From contig JBGSUL010000035.1 in assembly GCA_041736155.1 (NCBI GenBank), positions 2,100-66,099 of the forward strand: DNA of 64,000 bases, read 5' to 3'. Made by a program: the position numbers and the translations under genes. Under the pieces are notes generated by a model that worked only from the letters and a program-made list of their open reading frames with translations, did not search any database and was not told where the DNA came from. This DNA is from Bdellovibrionales bacterium. GTDB lineage: Bacteria; Bdellovibrionota; Bdellovibrionia; Bdellovibrionales; JAGQZY01. Shown here piece by piece: positions 1-20,171 of this stretch (its first letter is position 1; each line of letters starts with the position of its first letter).

Positions 1-1966
1 TCTCGTAACCTTGGATATTCACTGGCGTGGCAAAACTTCGGTAATAATCACCATAAAACAAGCTCGGCTGCGAGTTTTGATCTACATTTCTGATAACATC
101 CGAGTAAGGAATCGCTGCCGAATTTAACTGGTAGAAGTGGATACTCTCTTGAGGTTTTTCTCCGGCCTCAATATCACGGCACCATTTTAGGAAAAGATCT
201 GCGCCGTTGTCATTTTGAAAATAAATACCTTCTTGAGCCTGCAGTACAGAATCAACCAAGGGCTGACGAATTTTCATAACCGTTTCGCCCACCGTGAGCA
301 AAAAATCATCCGCTGGAATTCCATAAGCTTCATGCGTTCGTGTTGCGAAAAAATAATAGACACTGTCTAGCATTTCCGAACGCAAGAGTGAGGATTGTGT
401 TTCCGCATTGTTGCCAACTTTTTGCCCTGAGGCGTTTGTAAAATCAAACCATGGTTCCGAAAACTGTCCTGTTAAAAAATAATCAAACATAAGAGTTGTA
501 TCCACCCGTCGATTGAACCAACCAAATTTCAACTCTACAGACCACTCCGTTTTTGCCATATAATAAAAAAAGCCCAACATATTGGGGTACACTACCGTCT
601 TTAAAAGATTTCTATTAATAGCACTAAAAAAATTACGAACTTGCTCGTCAGTCACGTCTGATTGAGCTCTGTTTGCTTCAATAAAAGACTGCATGGGCTT
701 GATGCGATTGGCATGCAGATCATTCCATAATTGTTTAAGTTGAGAACTTTCCTCAATAACCGTTTGAACAAACTCTGCTGTTTTAGCTTCTTGTCGCAAA
801 AATTTGTCTTTGAGTTGCTGCGTTGCCTCAAGAGACGTCTGCGCCAAATCCCAGCGAATAAGTAATTTTGCTAAATCAAAGAAACTTCCCATCGCTTCGC
901 GATGATTTTCCATTTTGGCCAGGTATGTCCCAGCCGCGCTAGTTTCAATCGTGCGAGAATAAATATTCAACAAAAGAAAGACGACCAAGGGATCTTTTTC
1001 GGGCAATACACTGAGGTCGATATCTTTATATGCTGGGTACTGCATAAGATCGCGACGCCCTTGAACCAGCACAGCGATTTTTTCTGTGACTTTGACTTTC
1101 ACTTTTTCAGCAATCGAAGGACGCTTTTTAGCATAAGCTGGAATTTGCAGAAGTAGCTCTTCACGCAAAAAATCAATAGTATTTATGGAAGGAGGCGTGT
1201 AATCCCACACGTTCAAAGATTCAAATAGTTCAGCATCTTCGTCTGTGATGCTTGTCCAGTCTTTGATAATCAAGATATTCATAATATTTATAGAATGCCG
1301 ACGACGTTCTTCGTGAGAAACTAGTATTGCCGTCCCTTCCTGCTGCAATTTTAAGACTGCGCTCACATAAAGCTGCTCCAAACGAATTTCTTGTCGACTT
1401 CCAGAAATGTCGTATCCGACTCCCAAATAACCAAGCTGTCGGACTAAATCTGTTTCGTTTTGCGCATAATACACCAACAGGGCGACAGTGGCCTTTTCCT
1501 TCTTGAGTGATTCCTTCACCAGCTCGCAACTTCTCAATTGAGGATCAACACACGATTCAACATACAGTTTACGAAACTCTTCAAAAGAATTTCGAAACAC
1601 AGAATCTGAAGCCTGCAATGCCTCTTGCCGCTGCCCCTCCCACTTCTTAAAAATATCTACATATAAGCCCAAGTACCCAGAAAATGTATTCGACGTATAA
1701 ACTTCTGGCTCCATCGCTGAAGGTCCAAAAAGAATTTCCTCCGTCATACTTAAGGCTTTTAATAAATCTTCGCGAGATTCAGACTGAATCAACGAGTTGA
1801 TCTCATCTTGTCGACTATTAAAGCGAATATCACTCTCTTGATTCTGCTGATGCACAATCACAGGTGTTTCTTCCGGCAAAACCGTTTGATGGCGAGGTGT
1901 TGTCTCACTCTTACAAGCGGTGACAAACAAGGCTATGGTTGTTAGTTTTAATAAATTAAAACGCAT
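1..1966 (-). CDS. Large lipoprotein of unknown function, 3' end outside window (at least 655 codons); paralog of the 2870-6766 product
   Basis: Absent from the ORF track because no stop codon lies in the window. I translated the minus strand by hand from the ATG at 1966 and the frame stays open down to position 2. N-terminus MRFNLLKLTTIALFVTAC is a signal peptide plus canonical lipobox (VTAC). The ATG overlaps the upstream stop by 11 nt. Collinear motif matches to the 1298-aa neighbour. Confidence 0.75.
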   Translation of the reverse strand, partial: MRFNLLKLTTIALFVTACKSETTPRHQTVLPEETPVIVHQQNQESDIRFNSRQDEINSLIQSESREDLLKALSMTEEILFGPSAMEPEVYTSNTFSGYLGLYVDIFKKWEGQRQEALQASDSVFRNSFEEFRKLYVESCVDPQLRSCELVKESLKKEKATVALLVYYAQNETDLVRQLGYLGVGYDISGSRQEIRLEQLYVSAVLKLQQEGTAILVSHEERRRHSINIMNILIIKDWTSITDEDAELFESLNVWDYTPPSINTIDFLREELLLQIPAYAKKRPSIAEKVKVKVTEKIAVLVQGRRDLMQYPAYKDIDLSVLPEKDPLVVFLLLNIYSRTIETSAAGTYLAKMENHREAMGSFFDLAKLLIRWDLAQTSLEATQQLKDKFLRQEAKTAEFVQTVIEESSQLKQLWNDLHANRIKPMQSFIEANRAQSDVTDEQVRNFFSAINRNLLKTVVYPNMLGFFYYMAKTEWSVELKFGWFNRRVDTTLMFDYFLTGQFSEPWFDFTNASGQKVGNNAETQSSLLRSEMLDSVYYFFATRTHEAYGIPADDFLLTVGETVMKIRQPLVDSVLQAQEGIYFQNDNGADLFLKWCRDIEAGEKPQESIHFYQLNSAAIPYSDVIRNVDQNSQPSLFYGDYYRSFATPVNIQGYE

Positions 1967-2867
1967 AGGCAATTCCTACTGAGTAGAGTCGACGGTATTT
2001 ATCGTAGTAATCAACAAGCAAACGATCATTTTCGGGATAGGCATTGTTGAGCATGCCCGCTGAAATCTGGAATCCAAAAAGATTTCCATACATGGAAATC
2101 CTATTTCCAAAAGTCATATCCCAACTGTTATCTAAAAAACGAGTATTTTGCGTAACAAAACTGACGCGAACGCCGAGTCCAGGAAGAATAAGATAATTTA
2201 AACCAATAATATTCGAAAAGTTCCAATCGCGATTGAGAGTGTCGCCTTCGTAAACAGAAAAACGCAGACGGTTCGATAAATAGTCTCCAGTTAAGCGATA
2301 AAACAACGATACTCGGTTCCACTGATTTGACTCTAAGTAGTTAGATAAAGTTAAATCAAAAAGTGTTTTGTCATACTGACTTCTTTCGCTTGTTGGCAGG
2401 GAAAGGGTCAAAGTTGTTGAATTCATTAATAAATAAGGCGTTGGTTTTCGTATATTATAAATCATTCCAAGACTGATATCCGACATCTGATGATAGTCGT
2501 TTTGATCATTATCTCGTACAATTTTATTTTTATTAGTCTCGTGATCAAATCCCACAGACAAAAATGAACTCAAACGATCTGTAAAACTATAGGTGGCTGA
2601 TATTCCCAGCGAATGAAGAACGGTTTTCTCGGTGGTTTGCTGAAGATCATCGTAACGACCGCCATAATAAATCACCGCGCCATAATTGTTGGCCTTCGGC
2701 ATAAAGTCTGACTGATCGACACCTAACTTTTTTCTTTCCATTTTGGGTTTGTTTAAATTATTCGATGACGCCTTAACGTCTGCGGTCGCAGTAATAGGAG
2801 TGACTGTAGTTTGCGCTACAGCCACGGCAACCCATAAATAAGAAAACAGACCCATAACGAAATGCAA
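1956..2867 (-). CDS. Predicted outer-membrane beta-barrel protein (303 aa), family not recognised
   Basis: Signal peptide (..LWVAVAVA/QTT). Amphipathic beta-strand pattern throughout (LGISATYSF, FLSVGFDH, ISLGMIYNI, VSLFYRLTG, LGVRVSFVTQ, FGFQISAGM). C-terminus ..SVGIAYAF ends in Phe, the usual OMP assembly signature. The track start is TTG; an ATG at 2855 is an alternative. There is a 2-nt gap to the upstream gene. Confidence 0.7.
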   Translation of the reverse strand: MHFVMGLFSYLWVAVAVAQTTVTPITATADVKASSNNLNKPKMERKKLGVDQSDFMPKANNYGAVIYYGGRYDDLQQTTEKTVLHSLGISATYSFTDRLSSFLSVGFDHETNKNKIVRDNDQNDYHQMSDISLGMIYNIRKPTPYLLMNSTTLTLSLPTSERSQYDKTLFDLTLSNYLESNQWNRVSLFYRLTGDYLSNRLRFSVYEGDTLNRDWNFSNIIGLNYLILPGLGVRVSFVTQNTRFLDNSWDMTFGNRISMYGNLFGFQISAGMLNNAYPENDRLLVDYYDKYRRLYSVGIAYAF

Positions 2868-2869
2868 AG

Positions 2870-5800
2870 TTAATTCCCCTCAGGTGCGTTTAAGACATCT
2901 TTTAATAAATTCAATTGTGGGGTGATGGTCCCACTAAAATAATAGTTTGTGTTTTTGTTCATATCCGTAACAAATCCACTGAATTTTTCATAAATGAGAG
3001 AACTAATCAGATGTTCACTCGGATGCGCCACCGTCGAAATAGCTGGATCTCCCACAGTAAACTGTCTATCTGTGCGATATTTAAATTTAAATGGCGTAAC
3101 CTCCCTGGTCTTCACCTCTTGCAAGAACTCCTTGTTCAGCTCGAAGTAGTTGTTCAACCATGGTCTATAGTTGTTCACAAAAATATCTTCCAGCTCGGGA
3201 GGAAAGGGAAAGATAAACGTTGAGCCTTTTAAGTTCTGATTAGATGTTACATATTCGACCAGCACTGGCACAAACCAAGTGTTTTCGGCAACCGTAACCT
3301 CTTCATCCGAAAAGATACGTCTGTAGACCAGATCGTAATAAGAATACAACCTGTGCTCTTTTTGCTTTTTGATAAGTTTCTCATAATTATTTTCGCCATA
3401 TTTGGTAACATTCCCCAAATAATTGAGAACAATTTCATCGCGTTCATCAATATTCATAAGATGAATAAACTTTTCATAATGATCTATCACTTCTTTAGCG
3501 CTGACTTTGCGGCAATCATTTGCAAATTGCTCATCAGAAGGATCTAGTGCTTCACAATTGACTTCATTATTAATGGATATTTTGTTCAATTTATATAAGC
3601 TGACCAAAATATTTCCTTTTTCTTCAATCGTCTTGGTCTCCACTGCTGTTTTAGCCCACGGAACTTGGCTAGCAAATGTTCTCACACCAGAAGCTACGAA
3701 TTGTGCACGTGCGTTTGCTTTTTGTGCAGGACTCCAAGTGCTCACGCCTGACCAATTAAAGTTGACGCTCACTTCGCCGTTTTCTTTATAAATCTCCTCA
3801 GTCTCCATGTTGCTCACTGGAAAAATTTCGTATTGACCAGGGAAAATCTCATTTAAATAGCTCTTTAACCGCGCCAGGGTATCCAGTTTGAAGGTCGTCA
3901 CACGTCCCACTTCGAATCGTGTGTACCCTTTTCGCTCTCTGTATGCCTGAGGAAACATAGGGTCTGTGGAGGCCACCATAAATTGATCACGTACGACATT
4001 CAATTGTGCACGAACGGCCTCAGATGAAGATATGTTCTGCAATACATCTAACTCATTGATAGACGGATCAGCTTCTTGTTCGATACGTAATGGACCGAGA
4101 ACCTGCTCTCTTTGCGAACTCATATAGATTGTTACGACATCATATACTTTATCGAACAATTCGCCCCAGTACTGGGCTTCACGAAATATAAGAGCCTGTC
4201 GAATATCGCGGTCCCGATTGGCAAAGTCCCACTCACAGCCATTGATGGCATCATGCATACCAAAGAATGTTTCTGAGTATTCAGCCTTCAATCTTTTAAA
4301 ATCTTGGAACTGCTCTTCGATGATGCCTGCAATTTCATCTGCAGTGCCAGTCTCTTTGCTATATTGACGATAGATTTCCAAAAGTATCTTTGCCATAATG
4401 TTTTTCTTCTGAAAATCGGCTTTTAAGTTTTTAAGCGCAGACGTTACAGATGAACTGTAAGTACTACTCACCAACGATCCCGTTTTTAATGGGCGACTTG
4501 CTGTTGCGTCATAAACACTGGAGTCTAAATCTAAAAAAGAGATTTGATTTTTAGCTTGCGTTCTTGGCTTCATCAATAAAATCAACTGCTCTTGCCAATG
4601 GAATTTCTCACCCATACTCTGCTGCATTTCGGAATGAATGCGAACTTCCTGAGCCTGAAGTTGACGTTCTTCACGACAAGTCTGTTGCAGACTATCAACG
4701 ACGTTTGAGTAATTTTCACGCACGCTTTGCAAACTAGTTGTGGCAGTTTCTAAACTATTCTCTGTCTCAAGAACCAGCCGCTTAACTACGACCTTGAAAA
4801 ATTCTTCTATAGAAAACTTCAAAAGAGGCTTTTTATTTGTTGAGTAAGTACTAAATATTTCTGTCATCAACGCATAATAAAATGTGTAGAGAACCTGCGT
4901 GGTGTTTAAAGCATTTCCATCATGACCAAAATTGAAAAGGGGCTTAAACCCACCACCAAAAAATGTCTTCATGACGGTTAAACTATCAATCGTAAACTCA
5001 CCAAAGAATGTTTGAATTTTATCATTCATTTCCTGTGAAGCAAAAATGTGCACCAGAGAATACATACTTGGATAGGTGACAAGATATTTAATATTTTTTC
5101 CCAAAGCCTCAACATTCGAAGTGATTTGATCCACTTTCTGCTTATTTGCGGGAATATTTTTATTGACCACGCGATTAGCAAAACTTTGTAAAGTTTTAGA
5201 GCGATCAATTGTTTTTCCCCACGCTTTGCGAATCTCCGCTGCCTCTTTTTGTGCTTCTGTCATAAGCTCAATGATTTTCGTATCGGTGCTTTCGCCGTAA
5301 AAACGATTCATTCGAGTATTTGTATAGACAATATTGTTTACCACTTGGAGTTTGATCAAGGACGTGATCGCATCCATAAGTCTATTTTGGTCCTTGCCTG
5401 TGCTCTGCCAAAAAGCAGCCGCATCGTCGATATTATAATGCTCGTAGTATATCTGATGAACTAAGAAAAAGTATTCATCCGCGGGAAATTCGACATCTGC
5501 ACCCATACTGGTAAGGATGGCTTTGCTCTCTTGACCAAAAAGTTCTATGCGTTCACCAACGGCCGTGGTCACACTTTGGTAAACTTCTTGCTGCACATCA
5601 GTCAAACGTGCGATTTCTTCAGAAGCCTTCCACGTTTCATCAGCGTTTTGAAAGCGAGTCTTCCACTCGCCGCGAATATTTTCTTTTTGAAAAGACACAC
5701 CCTGCTCATAGTCAGTGCCAACGCGATAGTAGAGACTCTCGACGGCCTCGTGGAGTTCCTTTGATAACTGACGTGGTTTTATCGATGGAATAGGCGTGCC

Positions 5801-6766
5801 CGCCGGACCAGGCACTGTGGTTTCAACAGGTAAAAGGCTCACCTCTTGTGCATAAATAAGATTTTGAGCCGCTAGGTGCAAAAGCTCGGTCATCGCCGGA
5901 CTTTGTGGGCTGTCTTCGTTCCGTGATAAGAGCCATGGATTTACAGTGCGAATAAGATCAATGTATCTCTCGGACGAATTAGCCAAGTTTTCGTCCATAT
6001 TGATTTTAAGGACATTGGCAAATAAATTGGCGTCCTGTGACAATCTTCGTTGGCTGATGGTGCGAGATTTGTCTTGCGAAAGACTCGCCGCCAATCTTTC
6101 TAGAAGCATAAAGCGTAAGTTTTCGTCCAAACGACGGTTGGCTAAATCAAATGCCGCATAAACTAGACGTAATTTTTCTTCTTCTTGTGATTCCTGGTCA
6201 TGAAGGATTCGTACAATGCGTACAATGTTATTGCTGTCTGCTCCACGATAGAAACTAATAAACGAACATGTGCCTCGCAAATCTTCATCGCAATCCCAAA
6301 GAATCTGACTTTTCATTCGTGGCAATAACGTTTTGAGCATCACATGATTTGGATCTTCCGTGTACATAAGGAGAACCGCTTGATCGAACAAAACCACCAA
6401 GCGAGGAATCAGCTGAATTCCCGTTGCTGTCTCAAGGTATCTGTGGTCGGGATCTAATAAATAATCCACGTTCAGCACAACATCTAAAAGAGGTGTTATC
6501 ACCTGAGCATAGAGAAGAGCTGTGTTGATAGAGCCTTTTTCTTTTGCAAGTTGCTCGATAACAACAGGTTCCACTTGTTGCAACAGCTTTTCGAGTCGAC
6601 TGACTTCGCTCAAGTTAAAAGGAACGACGCCTTGTCCTTGTTGATTCGTAGTCGCTACACCATCTGGCAGGGCTCTTTTTCTTGTCGATTCTTGCGAATT
6701 ACAAAAACTCAAGGAGAAAGCCAGAGCTACAAGAAGTGATATTTTATTAAGATTTAATCTCATCAT
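2870..6766 (-). CDS. Giant secreted or lipidated protein (1298 aa), no recognisable catalytic motif
   Basis: N-terminus MMRLNLNKISLLVALAFSLSFC/NSQ is a signal peptide with a non-canonical lipobox (Phe at -1). Long predicted-helical, coiled-coil-like stretches. 9-nt gap to the upstream metzincin gene. Shares collinear motifs with the 1-1966 product. Confidence 0.8.
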   Translation of the reverse strand: MMRLNLNKISLLVALAFSLSFCNSQESTRKRALPDGVATTNQQGQGVVPFNLSEVSRLEKLLQQVEPVVIEQLAKEKGSINTALLYAQVITPLLDVVLNVDYLLDPDHRYLETATGIQLIPRLVVLFDQAVLLMYTEDPNHVMLKTLLPRMKSQILWDCDEDLRGTCSFISFYRGADSNNIVRIVRILHDQESQEEEKLRLVYAAFDLANRRLDENLRFMLLERLAASLSQDKSRTISQRRLSQDANLFANVLKINMDENLANSSERYIDLIRTVNPWLLSRNEDSPQSPAMTELLHLAAQNLIYAQEVSLLPVETTVPGPAGTPIPSIKPRQLSKELHEAVESLYYRVGTDYEQGVSFQKENIRGEWKTRFQNADETWKASEEIARLTDVQQEVYQSVTTAVGERIELFGQESKAILTSMGADVEFPADEYFFLVHQIYYEHYNIDDAAAFWQSTGKDQNRLMDAITSLIKLQVVNNIVYTNTRMNRFYGESTDTKIIELMTEAQKEAAEIRKAWGKTIDRSKTLQSFANRVVNKNIPANKQKVDQITSNVEALGKNIKYLVTYPSMYSLVHIFASQEMNDKIQTFFGEFTIDSLTVMKTFFGGGFKPLFNFGHDGNALNTTQVLYTFYYALMTEIFSTYSTNKKPLLKFSIEEFFKVVVKRLVLETENSLETATTSLQSVRENYSNVVDSLQQTCREERQLQAQEVRIHSEMQQSMGEKFHWQEQLILLMKPRTQAKNQISFLDLDSSVYDATASRPLKTGSLVSSTYSSSVTSALKNLKADFQKKNIMAKILLEIYRQYSKETGTADEIAGIIEEQFQDFKRLKAEYSETFFGMHDAINGCEWDFANRDRDIRQALIFREAQYWGELFDKVYDVVTIYMSSQREQVLGPLRIEQEADPSINELDVLQNISSSEAVRAQLNVVRDQFMVASTDPMFPQAYRERKGYTRFEVGRVTTFKLDTLARLKSYLNEIFPGQYEIFPVSNMETEEIYKENGEVSVNFNWSGVSTWSPAQKANARAQFVASGVRTFASQVPWAKTAVETKTIEEKGNILVSLYKLNKISINNEVNCEALDPSDEQFANDCRKVSAKEVIDHYEKFIHLMNIDERDEIVLNYLGNVTKYGENNYEKLIKKQKEHRLYSYYDLVYRRIFSDEEVTVAENTWFVPVLVEYVTSNQNLKGSTFIFPFPPELEDIFVNNYRPWLNNYFELNKEFLQEVKTREVTPFKFKYRTDRQFTVGDPAISTVAHPSEHLISSLIYEKFSGFVTDMNKNTNYYFSGTITPQLNLLKDVLNAPEGN

Positions 6767-6775
6767 ATATTATCC

Positions 6776-9700
6776 TTACTTGTTTATGTACTCGTACACC
6801 TGAGGTAAAATCCAACCATTCAACGAGAGCGCTGTCGAACTGATCAAACCAATACCTTTGGTCGAAGCATCGCAGCCATTCTGCGCAGGGATTAAACCTT
6901 CGCGCGTTTGGTAAAAGTCGAAAGCTGCATCTACGCTTTTTTCAAAGTTAATCTGCGCATCACCATCGACGTTAATATTGGGATCAATCTGGAATCCTTG
7001 AAAGTCTGGATTGCTAGCATTAAAATAGCTAGCAAGGCCCGTGACTCCACCAATACACTTTTCTAATTCTTGATTGGTTAAGCTGGAAATCGCATTTTTA
7101 ATGGTGAATCCCTCGAGAGGATCATCATATGACGTTTTATCATAGGTCACTTCTAGGGCCCAGATATACGAAGAGTCCTGACTTAAAAAACGTAATTTCG
7201 TCAGCGGCATGATTAGCTGATTCTCGTTACCACGAATAATCACCTTCCGATTCCGCAGAATATACGCATCTGACAAGTCGATGAGTTCACGTTTTGCAAG
7301 ATTGTAAAGTTTGGGAGAAAAAGTGAACATCTTATTTTGTGCCTCACCATTCTTAGGAACGGCTTTTAACAAAATCGCTACGATATCTACATTAAAACTC
7401 GTTTGTCCTTTAAGATCTTCAATGTAATCACTATCAAAACCACGAATCTGACCGTCATTGCTCAACTGGAAAGTGCGTCGCAAGAAATACGATAAATACA
7501 GGTTGGCAATACTCATGGTTGCTGAGTCCTGTAGAATAGTTCCGCCAAATCCCATGTTGGTTTTAATGGCCGTACCCATGACATCCGTAAACTCTTCAGG
7601 ATAGAGAGCGTAGTAACCCGTTTTTCCAGTATTAGGGTCAGAAAATCTGGGCTTTCCTATTCTCCACCAGCCATATTCCATGGTCGAAGAGGTGTTGGTA
7701 AAGACATCTAGCGCGGCAATTTTTAAATAGAGAAGACCCAATTGATCATAACGCCCAAAAATACGCGAATAATCATACGTCGCATTTCCACCGCGCAAAC
7801 CCGTCGGTAAAATAGCATCGTCGTAATTCATCAAGGCGTGGTCTGGTCCTTTCAAGCTCAGCAATACTTTTGCCACATCTAAAGATTTTCTTGTCGCACG
7901 GCAGAGCTTTTGCACTTCCGTAAAAGCCACTCCCTTTTCATAAAGAGTGTTTTCTAAATCGCGAAAACCCTGTTCATCAAGCTCAAGGATTTCGCGACTG
8001 CCAACAACATTTTTGTAAGTTTGCAATAGTGATGCGGCATCAGAAGCTGCTTGTATCCCACGACGCGATGTCGTGCGAGCCACTCCGGGTGTGACTTCTA
8101 AGGTCAGTCGAGCAAAATCCAAATCCCAACCTTGGGGAGCTTCTTGTGGATCGACACAAGCTCTCGAAAATCGCAGAAGCGCTTTTTCATCTTTCTTAAG
8201 TCGATTAAAAACGTCCAGGTAAACTTCATTGGTCGCAATTTGATAACGAAGTTCATCGTAAAACGTACGATTCTTATTCATCAAACTATAGGTTTGAACC
8301 CAGAGTAAATAATTGGCCCAATTCGAGTTACCGCCAGTGGCCGTAGTAAAGGAATTCATGCGCGAAACAAAAGACTCCGTATACTCTTTAAAGCCCTCAT
8401 TCACATTCGTGAAGGCGTCGTAACCGCGATCCCAACGCTGACAGTAGGGACTTGTTCCCACCCACGCGTCCATATCGGAACACTGAGGTAGATAGGTTGT
8501 TGTGTACTCACGCCCATCGTCGCCCGTGCGTTTTCCAGGAATTGTTCCATCTTTGTAAATTTCAAAAAACGTAAACTTTTCGTCACCGGGGATGTACGTA
8601 GCAAACTGCTGTTTGTATAAATAAGTGAGGGTGAGCTCATCCTGTGCTTGCATTTTGACTTTGTCATAAGGCAAAGCGACTTCCGTATGACCACTTTGGT
8701 AGTCCATGATACTCGAGTAGTTTTGCATGAGCTTCGCTTCTTCAGCGAGATAATTGTAAACAGAGTCTGGCACAGTTCCGCGTACAGGTAGACGATTGCC
8801 TTCGAATTGGTGACCTAATCCAACGCAATGACCCCATTCGTGGAGCATGACGTTTTTAATCATCGACTTAGCTGCCTCTTGTTTTTCAATGGAGTTCAGA
8901 CCCGCCGTTGCTTCTTGCATGGCAAAATAATGGTTTTCGAGACGATTTTCCATATCGTATGCGATACCCATTTTAGAATTAAACTCATCTGCCAAGCGCT
9001 GGTTATCTTGGGGACCCATAATGCCCGTATTAGCAAAATTCCTTTGCTCTGTTTCACCATCTGAGAAAACGGGATCCACACCAAAACGTGAAGCATTCAA
9101 AATTTTGGCGATATGGTCTTCTTCTGTCAGAATTTCTGTTTTGAATTCTTCAAGTAAGTCCGTATTCACATAACCAGGATAAGCATCACGGAAAGTCACA
9201 AAGTCTTTTGAGGCTTGAACTTCTACGATAGATGCTACGAAAGCGTCTACGGCTTCACGCAACTCTGTTTCGCGAGCCGAAATATCTTCCTCACTATCTT
9301 GTCGATCTCTCGACGGTGGCGCTAAACGTTGTTGCAATTCTTGGATTGCACCATTGATGTGATTATCGAAGAAAGATCTGTCGGAGAGTTGCGCAAAACT
9401 GGGGTGTGACTGGATTGATTTAAACCCTGGAGACCACGCAGCCAAATTTAACTGTCCCTTAATATCAAAGTAGTAAGGATTGTGTTTTACCGAGTCCAAA
9501 CCTTGAAACAAAGATTCTGTATTGCGGATAATTGCGTCCGCCACAGATTCACTGTCACGGTTGACGATATAGTCAATCAAACCACCCCACACAATGGTAC
9601 CTGCCCAGAGGATTTCACCGGTAGTTATGTCGGCATTCGCAAGACCGATACCGAGAGGAGCGCGCATAGAAAGAGCCGGGTCATCGACCCATGTGATGCT

Positions 9701-10783
9701 TGGACAACGTAGATCGTAGTCATATTTCATCTTGCGAGGAGATACGACAAACGCTTTTTGTCCGGGAGCCACAGCCTTGATATTCACCATGGCTTTGTTC
9801 ATTTCTTCGAGTACATCGACGCCAATTTGACGATAATTGCGATAATCCTCTGGGAAACTATTCAAGCACACTTCTATGGGTTTTTGTAAATCCCAGTGGG
9901 CGGCATAGTTCACCTCGTTAAATCCATTGGGTTTATTTCCAAGGATATGAAGTATGTTCATATACTGAGTTGTGCTCTGTTGATTGTATCGCGTCTTTAC
10001 AAAACCAGGCGTTCCTTTGAATTCTAAAAAGTTAAAACGCATTTCGTGTTGATTGAGAGACCCAAACCAACTCGATAGCAACGTTCCGTTAAATGCTAAA
10101 AAATTCGCGTCTGGTTTGACTTCGACTTCGATTTCATAAACATCGGTCAGCATATTTCCGCCTGCGGCTTGTGCTACCGCATCAGCAAAGCTATCAGGCC
10201 CTGGAGATTTATTGCTGTAAAATCGAATTCCTTTTAAGTTGATGTCCATGATCGGACTCAACTCCCAATTTTTACGATCCATTACTTTTTTGTAAACGTT
10301 CAATTCACGCCCCTTAGAGTCCACATCTCGCTCGTAGAAGTAATGCGCGGTGATAGGTAGAGTGAAAATCAGCGGCCACAATTTGGTGTCGTTGGGATAA
10401 TCCTGATCGATTTCTCGAGCTTCGAGATTTGTGCCATCGTGACTGATCATAAATTTCATATTGCAGTGACGAGAGTCATACGGTGTCGCCGTCAATCCCA
10501 AAGCATTTTTCCAACGTCCCGCCTGTGAAACAGATGCCCAGCCACAGAGCCAGCGTTTATCGGCGATGGTGACTTCGTTCGTGGCTTGACTGATGTCGAT
10601 CCCAAAGAAAACCTTGCGGATGGAAAGCGTTCCGTTCTGTACGATGGACATTGTTCGTGGGTTTTCGAGACCAGGCGAAGGATTGAGCGCCTCGGGTGTC
10701 GTATAGGTACACGAGCTAAGGAAAACCCCAAGGAGAAGAAGGTGAAAATTCAATACTACATTACGACCTACAAACTTTTGCAT
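6776..10783 (-). CDS. Giant lipoprotein zinc metalloprotease (1335 aa), metzincin-type
   Basis: Signal peptide plus lipobox (..LLLLGVFLSSC, Cys25). HEWGHCVGLGH (HExxHxxGxxH) is encoded at 8810-8842, and SSIMDY (Met-turn-like) at about 8699-8713. Upstream segments (IEVCLNSFPEDYRNY..VLEEMNKAM, ITWVDDP..ADITTGEILWAG) resemble, from memory, the DUF5117/DUF4953 zinc-dependent metalloprotease family. Confidence 0.8.
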   Translation of the reverse strand: MQKFVGRNVVLNFHLLLLGVFLSSCTYTTPEALNPSPGLENPRTMSIVQNGTLSIRKVFFGIDISQATNEVTIADKRWLCGWASVSQAGRWKNALGLTATPYDSRHCNMKFMISHDGTNLEAREIDQDYPNDTKLWPLIFTLPITAHYFYERDVDSKGRELNVYKKVMDRKNWELSPIMDINLKGIRFYSNKSPGPDSFADAVAQAAGGNMLTDVYEIEVEVKPDANFLAFNGTLLSSWFGSLNQHEMRFNFLEFKGTPGFVKTRYNQQSTTQYMNILHILGNKPNGFNEVNYAAHWDLQKPIEVCLNSFPEDYRNYRQIGVDVLEEMNKAMVNIKAVAPGQKAFVVSPRKMKYDYDLRCPSITWVDDPALSMRAPLGIGLANADITTGEILWAGTIVWGGLIDYIVNRDSESVADAIIRNTESLFQGLDSVKHNPYYFDIKGQLNLAAWSPGFKSIQSHPSFAQLSDRSFFDNHINGAIQELQQRLAPPSRDRQDSEEDISARETELREAVDAFVASIVEVQASKDFVTFRDAYPGYVNTDLLEEFKTEILTEEDHIAKILNASRFGVDPVFSDGETEQRNFANTGIMGPQDNQRLADEFNSKMGIAYDMENRLENHYFAMQEATAGLNSIEKQEAAKSMIKNVMLHEWGHCVGLGHQFEGNRLPVRGTVPDSVYNYLAEEAKLMQNYSSIMDYQSGHTEVALPYDKVKMQAQDELTLTYLYKQQFATYIPGDEKFTFFEIYKDGTIPGKRTGDDGREYTTTYLPQCSDMDAWVGTSPYCQRWDRGYDAFTNVNEGFKEYTESFVSRMNSFTTATGGNSNWANYLLWVQTYSLMNKNRTFYDELRYQIATNEVYLDVFNRLKKDEKALLRFSRACVDPQEAPQGWDLDFARLTLEVTPGVARTTSRRGIQAASDAASLLQTYKNVVGSREILELDEQGFRDLENTLYEKGVAFTEVQKLCRATRKSLDVAKVLLSLKGPDHALMNYDDAILPTGLRGGNATYDYSRIFGRYDQLGLLYLKIAALDVFTNTSSTMEYGWWRIGKPRFSDPNTGKTGYYALYPEEFTDVMGTAIKTNMGFGGTILQDSATMSIANLYLSYFLRRTFQLSNDGQIRGFDSDYIEDLKGQTSFNVDIVAILLKAVPKNGEAQNKMFTFSPKLYNLAKRELIDLSDAYILRNRKVIIRGNENQLIMPLTKLRFLSQDSSYIWALEVTYDKTSYDDPLEGFTIKNAISSLTNQELEKCIGGVTGLASYFNASNPDFQGFQIDPNINVDGDAQINFEKSVDAAFDFYQTREGLIPAQNGCDASTKGIGLISSTALSLNGWILPQVYEYINK

Positions 10784-10877
10784 TCTTGATCCTTTGCGTT
10801 TGTTCTTGTCTTAAAACTTATTGAATTATCCGTAAGGTAGGACATTTGACTTGTGACTTTTGCCGAAGTTCCCAAGC

Positions 10878-10946
10878 TTCTAAAACACCCAATTCTTTAA
10901 AAAACCCATAACCCCAATTTTGTTCCAGGCTTCTTAAAAAACACCC
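10878..10946. promoter_or_regulatory. Three direct copies of TTCT(T)(T)AAAA(AA)(CA)CCC in the promoter region of the giant operon
   Basis: Read directly from the plus strand: cTTCTAAAACACCC (10878-10890), aTTCTTTAAAAAACCC (10892-10907), cTTCTTAAAAAACACCC (10930-10946). They lie 95-165 nt upstream of the 10783 start in a 355-nt intergenic region. Confidence 0.45.
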
Positions 10947-11065
10947 TATGACAACCCAACCTAGGTGCTAATATATAAGGCATTTTGCAAATTTTATTAA
11001 GACGTGATTTGAATTGATGAAATGATTATACGGTTGGTGCCTTTGTATTCACTCACCTTGCGTTA

Positions 11066-11098
11066 TAAAAATAAAAAAACGGCTCTATTCAAGAGCCG
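11066..11098 (-). terminator. Rho-independent terminator after the 156-aa gene
   Basis: The minus strand reads CGGCTCT-tgaat-AGAGCCG followed by TTTTTTTATTTTT. This is a perfect 7-bp GC-rich stem plus a U-run, 40 nt after the stop at 11139. Confidence 0.85.
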
Positions 11099-11138
11099 AT
11101 CTTGTTGAGAATAAAATCTGATTAGCTTAATGATTTCG

Positions 11139-11609
11139 CTATCTTGACATCTTATAGAAGACATCCTGATAAGCCACTTCACCTGTCTCGCTATGATCGT
11201 AGACTGTAATGCCTAAATATTGTTCACCTATCTCGATGGCATCTTTTGGCTTCTGAATACCAATGATCTCCACCACTTTTTGGTTCATTCCCTGCTCATC
11301 ATTCATAACAAAGAAGAGTTTTCGCGAGAAACTCGAACAAAGAATATCAATGTCTTTGCCCGTGGGCTTACCATTAAAAGGGCTGATCTCGGTGATGGTA
11401 ACCAGGTACGGACACGCTAAGTCATAGGTGGTTAGCTGCAACTTGATTTCAAAAGCTCTTTGCGGACTGTTGAGATTTTTGCTCACCCACAATCCCTGGA
11501 GGTCTTTGATAAATACCTCTCTCTGAATGACTTCTGGCCACGGAACTTCTGGTCCGGCAAAAATCATTGGCGCGGTCATGAACATGAATATGAATACGAA
11601 CGTTTTCAT
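11139..11609 (-). CDS. Small secreted protein (156 aa), unknown function
   Basis: Signal peptide MKTFVFIFMFMTAPMIFA/GPE. Its ATG overlaps the regulator stop (ATGA). Followed by a strong terminator. Confidence 0.7.
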   Translation of the reverse strand: MKTFVFIFMFMTAPMIFAGPEVPWPEVIQREVFIKDLQGLWVSKNLNSPQRAFEIKLQLTTYDLACPYLVTITEISPFNGKPTGKDIDILCSSFSRKLFFVMNDEQGMNQKVVEIIGIQKPKDAIEIGEQYLGITVYDHSETGEVAYQDVFYKMSR

Positions 11610-12724
11610 TGCTGCTCCCTGGTTTGCTCTTCGACGACGACACTCGACTCTTTATTAAAATAATAACCGTTTTTAGATCTGAAAATATATTTGGGTTTTT
11701 CGATATCTGGCTCGATCAATTGACGTAAACGTTTGATCGTCACATAGATTTTATTGTCATGAACTTCTGGGTTGTAAGTTTGTTTCCAGATTTGTTTTAC
11801 CAACTGTTCTTTACTAAAAGATTGGCCAGGATTGGTCAAAAATAACTTGAGCAAATCAATAAGAATAAACTGATTATTAAAATCAATCCGCCCTTTGCCT
11901 TTTTCAAAAACAGAATGGTCAGAACTATTAAAAATAATATCGTAGCGATGCTCTTGCGAACTCCCGATCGATTCGGCCAACACTTCGACAAAACTGTAAA
12001 GTCGGCGCAGATTCTTTTTATCAATCGATTGTTGTACAAGCTTGATATATTTTCGCGCTTCTTCCAGCTGTCCGGCCTCTTTGTAAGTTAACGCCATTCC
12101 ATAGAGGAGTGATTGCGAAATGTGAAAGTTTTTTTGTTCTTTGAGTGTGGCGTACCCTTGCCAAAGAATATCAATGGCCTCTTCAAATTTGCGTAATTTA
12201 CGCATGATGTGGGCCTTTAAAAGATGCATCGACACACGTACTTCGGGCATGGGCATGACATTCATGAAGACCTGAAGATTGTAGATTTCTTTGAGCGCAT
12301 CTTCGAGACGGTCTTGCGAGTAATAAGAAACAGCCAAGCCAAAGATCGCAAAACACACAGTCTCTTTGTTGTCTTGCGCGAGAGAATGTGTGAGCGCTTT
12401 TTGGCAATATTCAATGGCGCGGTCGTGTTCGTTTTTATAAGACGAACAGAGTGCGAGGACGTAGTAGGTCTTGCCATTGACGGGCACACCCTCTTTGCTC
12501 ACGCGTTCTAAAAGTAAATTTTTATAGAATTCAATTTTATCAAATTCGAGGAGTTCAGCATAACAACGGAACAGTAAATGAACGACTTCTAAAAATTGCT
12601 CATCATGCTCTTGAGAAAGTAATTCGGCAGCAGCGGGCACAAGCAAGTCCACGGCTTTTAATACATCACCGCGTTCATAATACAGACGACCAATCTCTAA
12701 AGGTGCGATTGATTTCGACTCCAT
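11606..12724 (-). CDS. Transcriptional regulator: N-terminal TPR-like repeats plus C-terminal OmpR/PhoB-type winged helix, no receiver domain
   Basis: The C-terminus LTNPGQSFSKEQLVKQIWKQTYNPEVHDNKIYVTIKRLRQLIEP..YIFRSKNGYYF matches the Trans_reg_C pattern. The N-terminal roughly 250 aa are helical repeats. I prefer the ATG at 12724 (GAGGGGGAAA just upstream) over the track's TTG at 12736. Confidence 0.75.
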   Translation of the reverse strand: MESKSIAPLEIGRLYYERGDVLKAVDLLVPAAAELLSQEHDEQFLEVVHLLFRCYAELLEFDKIEFYKNLLLERVSKEGVPVNGKTYYVLALCSSYKNEHDRAIEYCQKALTHSLAQDNKETVCFAIFGLAVSYYSQDRLEDALKEIYNLQVFMNVMPMPEVRVSMHLLKAHIMRKLRKFEEAIDILWQGYATLKEQKNFHISQSLLYGMALTYKEAGQLEEARKYIKLVQQSIDKKNLRRLYSFVEVLAESIGSSQEHRYDIIFNSSDHSVFEKGKGRIDFNNQFILIDLLKLFLTNPGQSFSKEQLVKQIWKQTYNPEVHDNKIYVTIKRLRQLIEPDIEKPKYIFRSKNGYYFNKESSVVVEEQTREQQ

Positions 12725-12891
12725 TTTCCCCCTCAAGCAAACTCAATTTTGCCTTCCCAAAGCCGCGTTTGGAGGGAACAGTTTATCGCGAGATTTTGGA
12801 TTTACAAGGGGGTTGCTGGGAGAATTTTAAATTTTTTTCAAAGTTCGACGCACCATCTCCCCGCCCAGGCAGGCGGAGAGCGGCTTTGCGG

Positions 12892-15351
12892 TTAATGATA
12901 CGAATGGCCCGTGTATTGAGCTTTAAGCCCTAAATTCGTATCGCGAGTGGACTTAAACAAGTCTTTCGCGTTACGGATATCCAGAGCGTGCACCAACACC
13001 TGATCCACGTGATCCACCAGAACGATTTTAAGATCTTTTACAACTTCCTCAGGAATATCGCGGAGATCCTTTTCGTTCTCTTTCGGTAGGATGACAGTAC
13101 GGATTCCTCCTCGGTAAGCGGAAAGGATCTTTTCTTTGACCCCGCCGATCCCAAGAACGCGCCCACGGAGAGTGATCTCTCCCGTCATCGCCACCGTACG
13201 CAGAACTGGTGTCTTCGTCACGGCGGACACAATGCTCGTCGTGATGGCACAACCGGCAGATGGACCATCTTTCGGGATGGCACCTTCTGGAACGTGAATG
13301 TGGACGTCGATATTGAAGAAGAACTCTTTATCCAAACCAAACAATGGGCCGCGAGAACGCACATAGCTCATCGCTGCGGAACAAGATTCCTTCATTACAT
13401 CACCCAATTGGCCAGTAACGGTAAATTTGCCTTTACCAGGAACCACCGTCACCTCTATAGGCAGAAGATCTCCACCCACTTCGGTATAGGCCATCCCATT
13501 TGTCAGGCCGATTTCATTGGCTTCTTCAATTTTACCATGTCGGTACTTATGAGGTCCCAACATGTCGGTGAGTTTCTTCGCCGTAATAGTGTAAGTCTTT
13601 TTGATGCCCGCTTTGCTGACTTGTGAGCGTGTCGGTTTTTTTGCATTGCTCTTCATGTGGCGCTCAATCTCTTCTTCGCGCACAATTTCTTTGGCAATCT
13701 TACGACACACATTTGCTAATTGTCTTTCCAAGTTTCTCACACCCGCTTCGCGTGTGTAGTACTGGATGATGTCTTTGATCACACCATCAGCCAGTTGAAT
13801 TTTGTAATCGGACAAACCGTGCTGCTGTAATTGCTTCGGAAGTAAGTACTTCTTCGCAATATGCAATTTTTCGCTGTCGATGTAGCCTTCGATGGAAATA
13901 ACTTCCATGCGATCTAACAACGGACGCGGAATCGAGTGCAGTGAGTTTGCCGTAGTAAAAAACATCACTTTGGAAAGATCATATTCCACTTCCAAATAGT
14001 GATCTTGGAAGGTGGCATTTTGCTCAGGATCAAGAACCTCAAGCATGGCTGCCGACGGATCCCCTCTGAAGTCGTTGCTCATCTTATCGATTTCATCGAG
14101 AAGAATCAGCGGGTTGCCGAACTCCACTTTGCGAAGGGATTGAATAATTTTGCCAGGCATCGCTCCTACGTAAGTCTTACGGTGACCACGAATCTCGGCT
14201 TCATCACGCACGCCCCCGAGGGAAATACGCGTAAAGCTGCGGTTCAAGGATTTTGCCACAGACTTCGCCAGTGATGTTTTACCAACCCCTGGAGGTCCGA
14301 CGAGGCACAAGATAGGCCCCTTGACCTCACTGCTGAGACAATGCACGGCAATGTGTTCGAGGATGCGTTCTTTGACTTTTTCCAATCCCCAATGATCTTC
14401 ATTAAGAATGTTTTCAGCAAATTCCAGGTCTTTTTTCTCTTCCGAATAATTAAACCATGGCAAAGTGAGGAGCCAGTCGATGTAGTTGCGCACAACGGCC
14501 GCTTCGGCACTCATCGGCGACATCATCTTTAATTTTTTCAACTCTTTGAAGACCTTTTCTTTGGCCTCTTTGCTCATCTTCTTCTCGCGAGCTTTTTCTT
14601 CCAGTTCCATCAACTCAGCTTGGTAATCATCTTTTTCACCCAGCTCTTTTTGAATCGCCTGCATTTGCTCGTTGAGATAGTATTCTTTTTGCGACTTCTC
14701 CATCTGCTTTTTCACGCGACCGCGGATCTTCTTCTCGACTTCGAGAATTTCGATTTCGCTGGTCATCATGTTCAGTAGCTCTTCGAGACGTGTTGACGTA
14801 TTAATTTGCTCTAAAAGTTTTTGTTTATCCTCGAGCTTTAGGTTGAGCTGAGCGACAATAATATCCGCTAGTTCACCCGCTGTTTCAATACTCGAAACGC
14901 GCATCAGGATTTCTGGTGGGATGCGTTTGTTGAGTTTTACATACTTCTCAAACGTCATTTTAACCGAGCGTATGAGAGCCTTGAGCTCCACTTCGTCGCC
15001 AAGATCTTCGTCAAAGACTTTGACTTTGACCTTAAAAAATTTGTCGTTGTCGGTGAAGCTTTCGATTTTTACGCGCTTTTTGCCCTCGATGAGCACTTTC
15101 ACCGTGCCATCTGGTAAACGCAAAAGCTGTATGATCGTCCCCAACGTACCAATTTGGTAAACTTCATCGGGATTAGGATTGTTGGTCTTCGCATCTTTCT
15201 GCGCAGCTAAAACAATGTCCACTTGTTTGGACATGGCCTCTTCGAGAGCATTAATGCTCTTTTCGCGGCCCACAAACAACGGCATCATCATGTGCGGGAA
15301 AATAATCAGATCTCTCAGCGGCAGTAACGGTAATTCAAGCATTTCAGCCAT
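12892..15351 (-). CDS. lon: ATP-dependent Lon protease
   Basis: 819 aa. Has a LON N-terminal domain, Walker [14 protein letters not shown] and the catalytic-Ser region [26 protein letters not shown] precedes the ATG. Confidence 0.97.
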
Positions 15352-15406
15352 CCTTCCCCCTTGTTGTTAAGACAATTTGGAGGAAGATTTCGGTTAGCTT
15401 AAAATC

Positions 15407-19037: not shown

Positions 19038-19058
19038 GTTACGACAAATAAGTTGCAG

Positions 19059-20156: not shown

Positions 20157-20171
20157 GACAACTCTCCCCCA

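Follow-up and report, generated by a model that had tools for sequence, protein, structure and literature searches.

A lipoprotein metzincin, two giant paralogous partners and a small beta-barrel: a candidate outer-membrane protease system of Bdellovibrionota

At the start of a 64,000-nt stretch of Bdellovibrionales DNA (contig JBGSUL010000035.1; 'the window'), four minus-strand genes encode a metzincin-like lipoprotein (g1), two giant, mutually related proteins (g2 and g4, the P family), and a small outer-membrane beta-barrel (g3). The four-gene unit matches no described system, as the initial annotation had supposed, and for three of the four families our searches turned up no characterised relative. 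Most economically read, the genes encode an envelope metzincin, its accessory lipoproteins and a barrel in the outer membrane. They would form a protease assembly specific to this lineage and associated with the outer membrane, in which non-catalytic subunits act as scaffold or bind substrate, and the barrel is a partner. We put the probability of this reading at about one-half; that the products form a physical complex, what the barrel does in it and what it cleaves are parts that we infer.

Gene organization

Read from the 5' end, the minus-strand genes are g1 (6776..10783), g2 (2870..6766), g3 (1956..2867) and g4 (2..1966). The first two junctions are gaps of 9 and 2 nt, and at the last the frames overlap by 11 nt. 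This tight packing had been recognized at the outset, and every ORF, gap and overlap was found again. So was g4, hidden from the ORF track: its frame runs from the ATG at 1966 to the window edge, 655 codons without a stop, and it is missing from the ORF list because that list omits ORFs that run off the window.

A Shine-Dalgarno motif accompanies each junction: at the first AAGGA, which overlaps the stop codon of g1; at the second GAGGGG, 7 nt ahead of the g3 start codon (TTG); and at the g3/g4 overlap AGGA, 8 nt upstream. The overlap of g3 stop and g4 start (ATGCGTTTTAA, 1956..1966, minus strand) suggests translational coupling. The same spacing of -11 occurs at 10 of 29 barrel-P junctions elsewhere, and median spacings across loci are 7, -1 and -11 nt. 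On the 5' side of g1 lies a 296-nt intergenic region (10784..11079, minus strand), the presumed promoter region, in which a scan found no sigma-70 consensus. Beyond it, at the end of the upstream gene, sequence and scan reveal an intrinsic-terminator-like hairpin and T-run (CGGCTCTTGAATAGAGCCG then TTTTTTTATT; 11080..11098, minus strand) that marks the likely 5' boundary of the transcription unit. Because the junctions are tight, each with its Shine-Dalgarno motif, and because a terminator and a long intergenic region precede g1, the four genes are probably co-transcribed as one unit.

Conservation of the cassette

Of 67 non-identical loci, about 32 have the order g1-P-barrel-P, and all belong to MAGs of uncultured Bdellovibrionota, a group of predatory bacteria; the unit stays together in dozens of such genomes. 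The initial annotation had staked its proposal on gene order being conserved in relatives, and the neighbourhood check found that it is: the order holds down to about 26% g1 identity, between unrelated flanks that differ from locus to locus (JGI, ENA, NCBI and Logan contigs), and across 66 genome loci, and P-family genes always come after g1. Since order and tight junctions recur in dozens of independent loci, the clustering exceeds chance, and the data support the view that the four genes are one conserved, co-inherited unit. Chance adjacency, or partial linkage—g1 as an independent secreted protease, for example, with the P and barrel genes unrelated—is hardly credible and already disfavoured by the synteny: more than 45 informative loci, their flanks differing, retain g1-P-(barrel)-P even where identity has fallen to about 25%; the frames overlap or nearly abut; and the four genes diverge in a correlated way (pairwise identities, Spearman 0.49–0.87).

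The operon had been pictured as built around the barrel. That part does not stand. About 15 of roughly 47 informative loci are arranged g1-P-P, the large genes following one another without a barrel; in 4–6 loci the barrel gene lies upstream instead; and in some genomes, such as JAUICP with its four cassettes, none was seen within 10 kb. Altogether, roughly one complete cassette in three lacks a barrel in cis. Because the barrel is absent or moved upstream in about 15 loci, the invariant core, judged by gene content, is the protease plus two P proteins, not the barrel.

The metzincin, g1

The product of g1 (6776..10783, minus strand), characterized by ORF, translation, Pfam and homologs, is a 1335-aa lipoprotein metzincin and the putative catalytic subunit. 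Its zinc-binding motif, HEWGHCVGLGH (residues 648–658; 8810..8842, minus strand), has H648, E649, H652, G655 and H658 invariant, and all 61 of 61 relatives of full length retain the complete HExxHxxGxxH site noticed initially. The Met-turn, S-I-M-D-Y (residues 691–695; 8699..8713, minus strand), aligns with M693 and Y695 invariant, and [ST]xMxY falls no more than 70 residues from the zinc motif in the same 61 of 61. Homologs comprise 30 clusters, and there are 66 genome loci. The match to Pfam DUF4953 (PF16313, 'Met-zincin') is a marginal pass, 26.0 bits against a cut-off of 24.2, over the first half of the model alone (positions 4–177 of 316), and weak PDB profile matches, covering the stretch from HExxH through the Met-turn, are to astacin-family enzymes. 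Since the catalytic site is universally kept and PDB and Pfam affinities are solely to metzincins, g1 is likely to be an active zinc protease.

Like g1, metzincins combine HExxHxxGxxH with a downstream Met-turn, and S-I-M-D-Y corresponds to the SxMxY of astacins and serralysins, with Tyr two residues past Met. The residue that follows the third His is Gln in g1, whereas it is Glu in astacin, Pro in serralysin, Ser in matrixin and Asp in adamalysin. Unlike known metzincins, moreover, g1 embeds its catalytic domain of ~230 residues within a 1,335-aa lipoprotein, and P-family genes follow. No known relatives were found for its N-terminal 600 and C-terminal 500 residues, nor any transmembrane segment besides the signal peptide. 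The lipobox, L22-S-S-C25 (10709..10720, minus strand; Cys25 invariant in 28 sequences), leads in ortholog N-termini into a conserved tether, C-[TS]-Y-[VT]-TPEAENPxPGLE.

The P family, g2 and g4

The first P-family member, g2 (2870..6766, minus strand; ORF and translation), is a probable lipoprotein of 1298 aa. The open frame of g4 (2..1966, minus strand) supplies the N-terminal 655 aa of the second, a lipoprotein cut at the window edge; in relatives it is about 1190–1250 aa at full length, and the product of the fourth gene of one such locus (L002; 1188 aa) is 30% identical to g4 over 654 aa. Aligned with hhalign, the two families match over 1059 columns (probability 100; E 1.8e-66). Thus g2 and g4 are full-length paralogs of an unannotated family, about 1,100–1,300 aa long and nearly all-alpha. 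The initial annotation, which missed this paralogy, counted three giant lipoproteins; the lipobox cysteines are there in g1, g4 and probably g2, but the three comprise one protease and two paralogs.

The P family has no match in Pfam, NCBIfam or PDB, nor has g2 any in PADLOC. The AF2 model of g2 (residues 99–1298; pLDDT 74, pTM 0.65) is helical, and a Foldseek search of PDB with it gave TM about 0.1 at best. Conservation, by profile and BLASTP, is highest in a core at g2 residues about 390–680 (4727..5599, minus strand), which contains the motifs VTYPxM and PxFNFGxDG, the local BLASTP match between g2 and g4, and the alignment columns of P464, M466 and W509. Among the listed best 150 of 284 representatives, nearly all match best at profile positions about 290–580. 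Because family-wide invariance is limited to residues of Cys, Pro, Trp and Met and a single Arg, and HExxH occurs at chance level (5 of 97), the P subunits, with no conserved catalytic residues, are probably non-catalytic.

In g4 the lipobox is V15-T-A-C18 (1913..1924, minus strand), with Cys invariant in 18 sequences. In g2 Cys22 is invariant in orthologs, and the -1 position is non-canonical (F in the window; N, H, S or A in orthologs), so the cautious description of g2 as 'secreted/lipidated' was well chosen.

The barrel, g3

ORF, translation and AF2 identify g3 (1956..2867, minus strand; TTG start) as a 303-aa outer-membrane beta-barrel of 12 strands. It comprises a signal peptide, a Lys-rich disordered linker, an LGVDQSDFMP motif that is conserved in the window's subclade only, and a C-terminal AYAF whose Phe303 is invariant in 13 orthologs; with the 12-stranded AF2 model (pLDDT 73.6), this confirms the barrel first proposed. 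Residues 19–48 of the model are disordered, and the only predicted helix is a 3-residue turn. No Pfam family matches. The best Foldseek matches are FapF, the functional-amyloid transporter of Pseudomonas (PDB 5O65/5O68), and the COG4313 channel (PDB 4RL8), at E about 1e-8 and TM 0.5–0.6, but structural matches are generic, with sequence identities of 9–14% (10–14% to FapF/COG4313). Both are 12-stranded channels; the barrel is not of the Slam/T11SS or Sus kind, Slam/T11SS being a barrel-assisted surface lipoprotein system of the sort offered as a precedent. FapF, COG4313 and g3 have 12 strands, similar sizes, and an N-terminal periplasmic extension ahead of the barrel, and the fapF operon also encodes a protease, FapD, as that of g3 encodes g1. 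Unlike them, g3 has no predicted coiled coil or clear plug helix, and a third of cassettes dispense with it in cis; its operon partners are giant lipoproteins, whereas those of FapF are amyloid subunits.

With FapF, a polypeptide transporter, among the top matches, the cassette might be a dedicated secretion or display device: the giant lipoproteins would cross the outer membrane, whole or in part, by way of the barrel, as amyloid subunits do by FapF and surface lipoproteins by Slam/T11SS, and g1 would process the cargo. Slam barrel genes, too, are linked to lipoprotein genes; the g3 gene sits between putative cargos in most loci; and the strongly conserved post-Cys tethers could be sorting signals. 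Many cassettes, however, have no barrel in cis, and the device would have to handle cargos of about 1,300 aa that are folded and contain disulfides. Slam is a DUF560 barrel of 14 strands and about 480 aa with an N-terminal TPR domain, and exports cargos with a C-terminal beta-barrel domain; neither DUF560 nor TPR was found in g3 by architecture or Pfam, and the P proteins are all-alpha in the AF2 model. The coiled coil and plug helix of FapF, likewise, are not evident in the g3 model. We consider such a device improbable.

Envelope placement

The invariant lipobox cysteines of g1 (LSSC, Cys25), g4 (VTAC, Cys18) and g2, conserved Cys pairs and no transmembrane helices in the large proteins, and a 12-stranded barrel with C-terminal Phe together point to an envelope location for the cassette. 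From these features we infer lipidation of g1, g4 and probably g2, and an outer-membrane location. None of the three has Asp at +2. Under the established Lol rule of model proteobacteria such lipoproteins go by default to the outer membrane's inner leaflet; the rule was derived from E. coli and may not hold in Bdellovibrionota.

An inner-leaflet position would suit a periplasm-facing protease for envelope quality control or remodelling, with chaperone-like helical partners, and with the barrel as substrate, regulator or co-assembled client. The E. coli M48 proteins BepA, YcaL and LoiP, also lipid-anchored or envelope-associated zinc proteases at the outer membrane, would be comparable in role; the P proteins are large, helical and devoid of a catalytic signature; and the proteostasis genes clpP-clpX-lon adjoin the window cassette. 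That adjacency is not conserved, however, since each lineage has its own flanks. Quality-control factors with housekeeping duties usually occur as single copies and are widespread, whereas these cassettes diverge rapidly, come in 2–4 divergent copies per genome, and appeared in no genome of a cultured species in a single genome scan. BepA, YcaL and LoiP, furthermore, are single-copy, gluzincin-like proteins of about 250–490 aa with HExxH only, not encoded with giant paralogous partners, and g1 has no M48 match. A quality-control role thus seems quite unlikely.

Paralogous cassettes and a possible mechanism

Genomes often carry 2–4 divergent cassettes, and the non-catalytic subunits change fastest: pairwise identity averages 37% in g1, but 25% in the first P protein, 24% in the barrel and 18% in the second P protein. 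Both features would be at home in a protein-harvesting locus analogous to the Sus-like polysaccharide/protein-utilization loci (PULs) of Bacteroidota, in which g1 and P would be surface-exposed lipoproteins for capture and digestion and the barrel a passive channel for peptide uptake, all coupled functionally without a stable four-part complex. Sus-like loci, too, occur as several divergent paralogs per genome and encode surface or outer-membrane lipoproteins, one of them hydrolytic, together with an outer-membrane barrel. The g3 barrel resembles small substrate channels (COG4313, OmpG, FapF), and cassettes lacking it in cis would be expected if the channel were optional or a shared accessory. 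But Sus-like loci, of a different phylum, rely on a 22-stranded TonB-dependent transporter and a SusD-like fold; a Pfam search found neither here, where the barrel is small and optional. Lipoproteins, besides, are not known to be surface-exposed in this phylum, and a barrel of 12 strands could be too narrow for the task, or plugged. We regard harvesting of this sort as possible, if unlikely.

The protease assembly that we favour might work as follows. A promoter in the 296-nt region would yield one transcript for g1, g2, g3 and g4, with translation coupled over the very short junctions. All four products would be exported; g1, g4 and probably g2 would be lipid-modified at the invariant Cys and, given the absence of Asp at +2, sorted to the outer membrane, into which g3 would insert as a 12-stranded barrel. 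There g1, an active zinc endopeptidase of the metzincin clan, would form a hetero-oligomer with the two all-alpha P proteins of about 1,200 aa, which would provide a scaffold, bind substrate or act as a gate. The barrel would be the integral-membrane partner—most plausibly a narrow conduit of the FapF or COG4313 type, or a docking site—that takes up proteolysis products or helps to expose or hold the lipoproteins. Since about one complete cassette in three has no barrel in cis, it is doubtful that a 1:1:1:1 complex is obligatory, unless cassettes share their barrels in trans. The generic barrel matches, the subclade-limited motif of g3 and the atypical -1 residue of the g2 lipobox speak against this scheme. 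That whole cassettes are duplicated and that their non-catalytic subunits diverge faster suggests specialization for different protein substrates or prey surfaces.

Base composition

The AT-richness first noticed by eye is real, but small: GC is 0.385–0.413 in g2–g4 and 0.440 in g1, against 0.447 +/- 0.025 in the other genes of the window. Several of those genes are equally low, so the composition of g2–g4 is no evidence for foreign origin.

A conserved cassette of envelope proteins

Four minus-strand genes at the edge of the window form a conserved operon-like unit: g1 (6776–10783, 1335 aa), g2 (2870–6766, 1298 aa), g3 (1956–2867, 303 aa, TTG start) and g4 (2–1966, truncated by the window edge). 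They encode a lipoprotein with an intact metzincin site (g1), two members of a new, non-catalytic family that are paralogs of each other (g2 and g4) and a 12-stranded outer-membrane barrel (g3), and all four proteins carry export signals. The first three appear in the ORF list; g4 is missing from it because ORFs that run off the source go unlisted. The initial annotation had recovered g4 by hand translation, correctly so: from the ATG at 1966 its frame continues without a stop for 655 codons, up to the window edge. The tight packing it described is likewise found in both the ORF list and the junction sequences. The TAA of g1 is followed by a 9-nt gap, with AAGGA overlapping the stop; 2 nt separate g2 from g3, where GAGGGG lies 7 nt ahead of the TTG, so that this codon is favored as the start over a downstream ATG; and g3 and g4 overlap by 11 nt (ATGCGTTTTAA), with AGGA 8 nt upstream. 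The 5' side of g1 is a 296-nt intergenic region, ahead of which a clean hairpin and T-run terminates the neighboring gene. The impression that parts of the cassette are AT-rich was accurate but unremarkable: GC content is 0.385–0.413 for g2 to g4 and 0.440 for g1, against 0.447 ± 0.025 for the remaining 48 window ORFs, some of which are as low as g2 to g4. Since other ORFs are equally low, GC content does not support horizontal acquisition.

Contig look-ups with g1 and g2 homologs return one shared gene order, with proteins of about 1,300, 1,250, 300 and 1,200 aa, set in unrelated flanks: ATP synthase and mfd in one case, ABC-F and a symporter in another, giant fn3/SRCR proteins in a third, purK and a patatin in a fourth. 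When one genome of each GTDB species was scanned, 66 loci were recovered, all in Bdellovibrionota MAGs (labeled Bdellovibrionales, Pseudobdellovibrionaceae, Bdellovibrio sp., Bdellovibrionia or Oligoflexia) plus one MAG labeled just 'Proteobacteria bacterium'. Several MAGs contain two to four copies. Source environments of the cassettes are glacier-fed streams, activated sludge and lake biofilms. The scan, which used two peptide patterns, matched no cultured species' genome, and cultured species probably lack the cassette.

To classify all ORFs at these loci, we used HMMs for g1, for the family of giant proteins to which g2 and g4 belong (P) and for the barrel (B), the latter two iterated on the loci themselves. 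Among 67 non-identical loci, the order is g1-P-B-P in approximately 32 and g1-P-P in approximately 15; in four to six the barrel lies upstream, at times divergently, and the remainder are cut by contig ends. About one third of the complete cassettes have no barrel in cis, the barrel-less MAGs including JAUICP010000002/3/6 and JAUHWN, and one MAG with four cassettes has none within 10 kb. Median spacings are 7 nt for g1-P, –1 nt for P-B, –11 nt for B-P and –8 nt for P-P. When 24 complete cassettes are compared pair by pair, identities in the four genes vary in step (Spearman 0.49–0.87), and together with the shared order this implies that the module has been inherited and duplicated as a unit. 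Adjacency of the four genes by chance is effectively excluded by this conservation. Mean identity falls from 37% for g1 to 25% for the first P protein, 24% for the barrel and 18% for the second P protein, making the protease the most constrained part of the module and the second P protein the least.

Variants of the arrangement occur. Three related loci (L013, L014 and L018, about 3100–21400) have head-to-head double cassettes, barrel-g1-P on the minus strand and barrel-g1-P-P on the plus strand, and here both barrels come first rather than third. The fourth gene of locus L001 (14718–18349) is split into 768 and 440 aa, and the P genes of L032 (13480–21195) are in many pieces; these are possibly pseudogenes or assembly frameshifts. 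The barrel ORFs of L038 (10983–12344) and L065 (12720–14183) are 453–487 aa long, against about 300 aa elsewhere, reflecting either an N-terminal extension or an over-extended ORF start.

A metzincin lipoprotein

The signal peptide of g1 ends in LSSC, Cys25 being the lipobox cysteine, and residues 648–658 read HEWGHCVGLGH, so that the complete HExxHxxGxxH site first noticed in this 1335-aa lipoprotein is genuine. A Met-turn, S-I-M-D-Y, follows at residues 691–695, with M693 lying 35 residues past H658. The enzyme therefore has both sequence hallmarks of the metzincin clan MA(M), the extended zinc motif and the Met-turn; metzincin catalytic domains consist of a five-stranded sheet plus three helices. 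An alignment of 28 homologs shows no variation in the zinc ligands, Glu649, Gly655, Met693, Tyr695 and ten cysteines, and HExxHxxGxxH and [ST]xMxY are kept in all 61 full-length, non-identical homologs from the fetched loci.

Assignment to a metzincin family is more distant. The best Pfam match, to the 'Met-zincin' family DUF4953 (PF16313), is marginal (26.0 bits against a gathering cut-off of 24.2, E = 6.5e-6) and partial, spanning profile positions 4–177 of 316; weak DUF4953 matches recur in 24 of 28 relatives (E ≤ 0.01). Reprolysin, matrixin and M66 fall below threshold, and Peptidase_M10 matches g1 or its relatives weakly, with E from about 1e-3 to 0.08. Searching the PDB with a profile of the catalytic domain returns metzincins only, all at E ≥ 0.06, among which the astacin-family alignments run from the zinc motif to the Met-turn. 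PDB searches with g1 and its profile otherwise found no relatives, the one further hit being a 19-residue zinc-site match. Like astacins (M12A) and serralysins (M10B), g1 has the 'Tyr switch' SxMxY with its invariant Y695, but where astacin has Glu after the third zinc histidine and serralysin has Pro, g1 has Gln659, and Pfam detects no Astacin or serralysin domain in g1 or its relatives. The conservation of the zinc site and Met-turn in 61 of 61 homologs, coupled with matches to metzincins alone, leads us to predict that g1 is an active metzincin, and a remote outlier of DUF4953.

Some 1,100 residues of g1 carry no assignment. Kinship of these non-catalytic parts with the P family was considered and rejected (hhalign probability below 2%). 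At the lipobox cysteine and directly after it, residues 25–41 (window 10709–10660) read C-[TS]-Y-[VT]-T-P-E-A-E-N-P-x-P-G-L-E, a segment that hardly varies among most orthologs at 40–60% identity, the closer ones.

A family of giant helical proteins, probably lipoproteins

The g2 protein has no match in Pfam, NCBIfam or the PDB, the last searched both with the sequence and with its profile; the g4 fragment in the window has none in Pfam or NCBIfam, nor does a full-length g4 ortholog in NCBIfam. Pfam finds no domain in eight distant P members, and Pfam and NCBIfam find nothing for other variants of the cassette. The names of cluster members are uninformative. PADLOC anti-phage models, too, match none of g1, g2, g3 and the full-length g4 ortholog. 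The fourth gene of locus L002 (1188 aa) is 30% identical to the g4 fragment over 654 residues, from which, the window edge cutting the gene, we put the full length of g4 at about 1,190–1,250 aa, as judged from orthologs. Looking up contigs by the exact sequence of g2, or of P0001, which matches it at 100%, returned no record from which the 3' end of g4 could be read.

BLASTP gives a single weak local match between g2 and the full-length g4 ortholog (E = 5e-5). Profile–profile comparison reveals the two as paralogs over essentially their whole length, with probability 100, E = 1.8e-66 and 1059 aligned columns. A P profile searched against 1.84 billion representative proteins recovers 284 members, almost all of which, among the matches listed, are 1,050–1,390 aa long; in the best 150 of the 284 the best-conserved core corresponds to g2 residues from about 390 to 680. 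Only Cys, Pro, Met, Trp and one Arg are nearly or fully invariant in 18 diverse g4-type sequences, and HExxH occurs in 5 of 97 P members, which is chance level. This pattern, in which no catalytic residues are kept, speaks for P proteins that bind or provide structure rather than catalyze. An AlphaFold2 model of g2 residues 99–1298, built from nine sequences (pLDDT 74.2, pTM 0.65), is nearly all alpha-helical with few hairpins. Foldseek comparison of the model with the PDB found no recognizable solved relative. It returned generic helical-repeat giants, rejected as structural relatives since a TM-score of about 0.1 is meaningless.

Judged by the pattern [LVI][ASTVI][GAS]C, g1 and g4 have lipoboxes. 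That of g4 is VTAC, whereas g2 has a candidate lipobox that is atypical at position –1 (Phe here; Asn, His, Ser or Ala in orthologs) ahead of Cys22; in all three proteins the cysteine that ends the signal peptide is invariant among orthologs. All three are acidic and have no transmembrane segment besides the signal peptide. The g2 orthologs share a post-cysteine tether of their own, C-[TS]-P-K-E-S-T-R-K-R-S, and such conserved tethers in g1 and g2 could be sorting or docking signals. Residues 609–617 of g2 (window about 4916–4942) form a loop, P-x-F-N-F-G-x-D-G, that is a signature of the family, is invariant among g2 orthologs and falls in a low-confidence stretch of the model (pLDDT < 50); its function may lie in interactions or in binding an ion.

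The barrel, and how it compares with known systems

Word-based searching finds just 13 clusters of g3 homologs, and neither Pfam nor NCBIfam has a family for g3. In its AlphaFold2 model (pLDDT 73.6), a signal helix is followed by a Lys-rich linker that is disordered (residues 19–48), a short helical turn at 52–54, and 12 strands. An even number of strands and a C-terminal aromatic beta-signal are what one expects of an outer-membrane beta-barrel; the terminal residue is an invariant Phe in the window's subclade, and Phe, Ile or Leu in distant members. The helical turn coincides with the motif LGVDQSDFMP, ahead of strand 1; as a family-wide plug or docking signal the motif was rejected, being conserved in the window's subclade only. 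The closest structures by Foldseek are FapF (5o68, 5o65) and the COG4313 channel (4rl8), at E of about 1e-8, TM-scores of 0.5–0.6 and 10–14% identity, with porins and OmpG ranking after them at lower TM. What g3 shares with these channels is the strand number and overall fold. Their family, PF13557, matches none of the 13 g3 members at E ≤ 1, and in them an N-terminal helix plugs the lumen, with a coiled coil in addition in FapF.

A barrel encoded alongside lipoproteins brings to mind the Slam translocators of the Type XI secretion system, and the initial annotation cited barrel-assisted display of surface lipoproteins as a precedent. Slam proteins, however, are 14-stranded DUF560 barrels with N-terminal TPRs; g3 has 12 strands in 303 aa, and Pfam finds neither DUF560 nor TPR in g3 or its homologs. 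The barrel is not of the Slam kind, and that g3 serves as a device for displaying or secreting its companion lipoproteins seems to us very improbable. A capture-and-uptake locus, akin to those for polysaccharide utilization and forming no stable complex, would also combine large lipoproteins with a barrel, and we think it unlikely: Sus-like loci pair a SusC TonB-dependent transporter with a SusD-family lipoprotein, and Pfam finds no TonB_dep_Rec, Plug or SusD domain in any of the four proteins. The main weakness of every reading centered on the barrel is the third of complete cassettes that lack one in cis. The initial observation holds, and its interpretation is supported in part. The cassette is an envelope module that is real, strongly conserved, confined to its lineage and thus far undescribed; in it an enzyme and a barrel, each of a known kind, are joined by giant helical lipoproteins that make up a new family. 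The Slam-like and Sus-like definitions do not apply.

What the module might do

The three large proteins would be lipidated. Under the Lol sorting rule, established in E. coli, Asp at +2 governs destination; g1, g2 and g4 have no Asp there, and so by that rule would be sent to the outer membrane. The P proteins may assemble with the protease as scaffold or substrate-binding partners, and the barrel may be a membrane-embedded partner, conduit or dock. To this reading, a lipid-anchored outer-membrane protease with P proteins as scaffold or binding partners and the barrel as a further partner, we give roughly an even chance. More tentatively, the cassette could encode a previously undescribed, Bdellovibrionota-specific outer-membrane machine in which a hetero-oligomer of the metzincin and two paralogous lipoproteins of a new all-alpha fold is docked on, or exposed through, its own barrel; the cell surface would be its place of action, whether in attacking prey or in harvesting protein, with several specificity variants per genome. 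Duplication of whole cassettes and fast-evolving accessory subunits would fit specialization for different substrates or prey surfaces.

A module that faces the periplasm and attends to envelope quality control strikes us as quite doubtful. The cassette in the window does lie beside a proteostasis cluster, and that adjacency is not kept in other lineages.

As predators, Bdellovibrionota use envelope proteins to recognize, enter and digest their prey. To our knowledge, this predation machinery of the envelope is mostly undescribed, above all in those members of the phylum, the majority, that have not been cultured. Our literature searches brought up nothing relevant on DUF4953, Bdellovibrio metzincins or Bdellovibrio lipoprotein metalloprotease operons, and no paper mentioning an operon of this kind. 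The module costs about 4,100 codons per copy, often in several copies, and for so large a unit to stay whole over such deep divergence, selection on it must be strong. Of the four protein families, three are without annotation and one is without a detectable structural relative. If the lipid-anchored protease does work in a surface complex, it would represent a new architecture among the few Gram-negative outer-membrane assemblies of lipoproteins and barrels, would add a new family of folds, and would be a candidate for what sets the range of substrates or prey. Should the module instead prove to be periplasmic housekeeping, several hundred giant proteins now called 'hypothetical' could still be annotated as a new family.

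Neighboring genes

At window 12892–19037, the proteostasis cluster consists of lon (819 aa), clpX (431 aa) and clpP (211 aa) on the minus strand, and is followed on the plus strand by an M17 leucyl aminopeptidase. Receiver-domain or histidine-kinase genes adjoin the cassette in about 14 loci (L005, L022, L028, L038, L041, L048, L058, L065 and others), a neighbor cluster that owes its cohesion to the REC domain, a common one; the adjacency may be due to chance. Directly upstream of the cassette in the window (11139–12736, minus strand) lies a gene for a 376-aa protein with TPR and Trans_reg_C (OmpR-type winged-helix) domains, overlapped by 4 nt by a 156-aa ORF whose family is not recognized. 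The TPR protein is possibly a regulator of the cassette, or its position may be coincidence; a similar gene is found in locus L007, 7 kb upstream of the cassette there.
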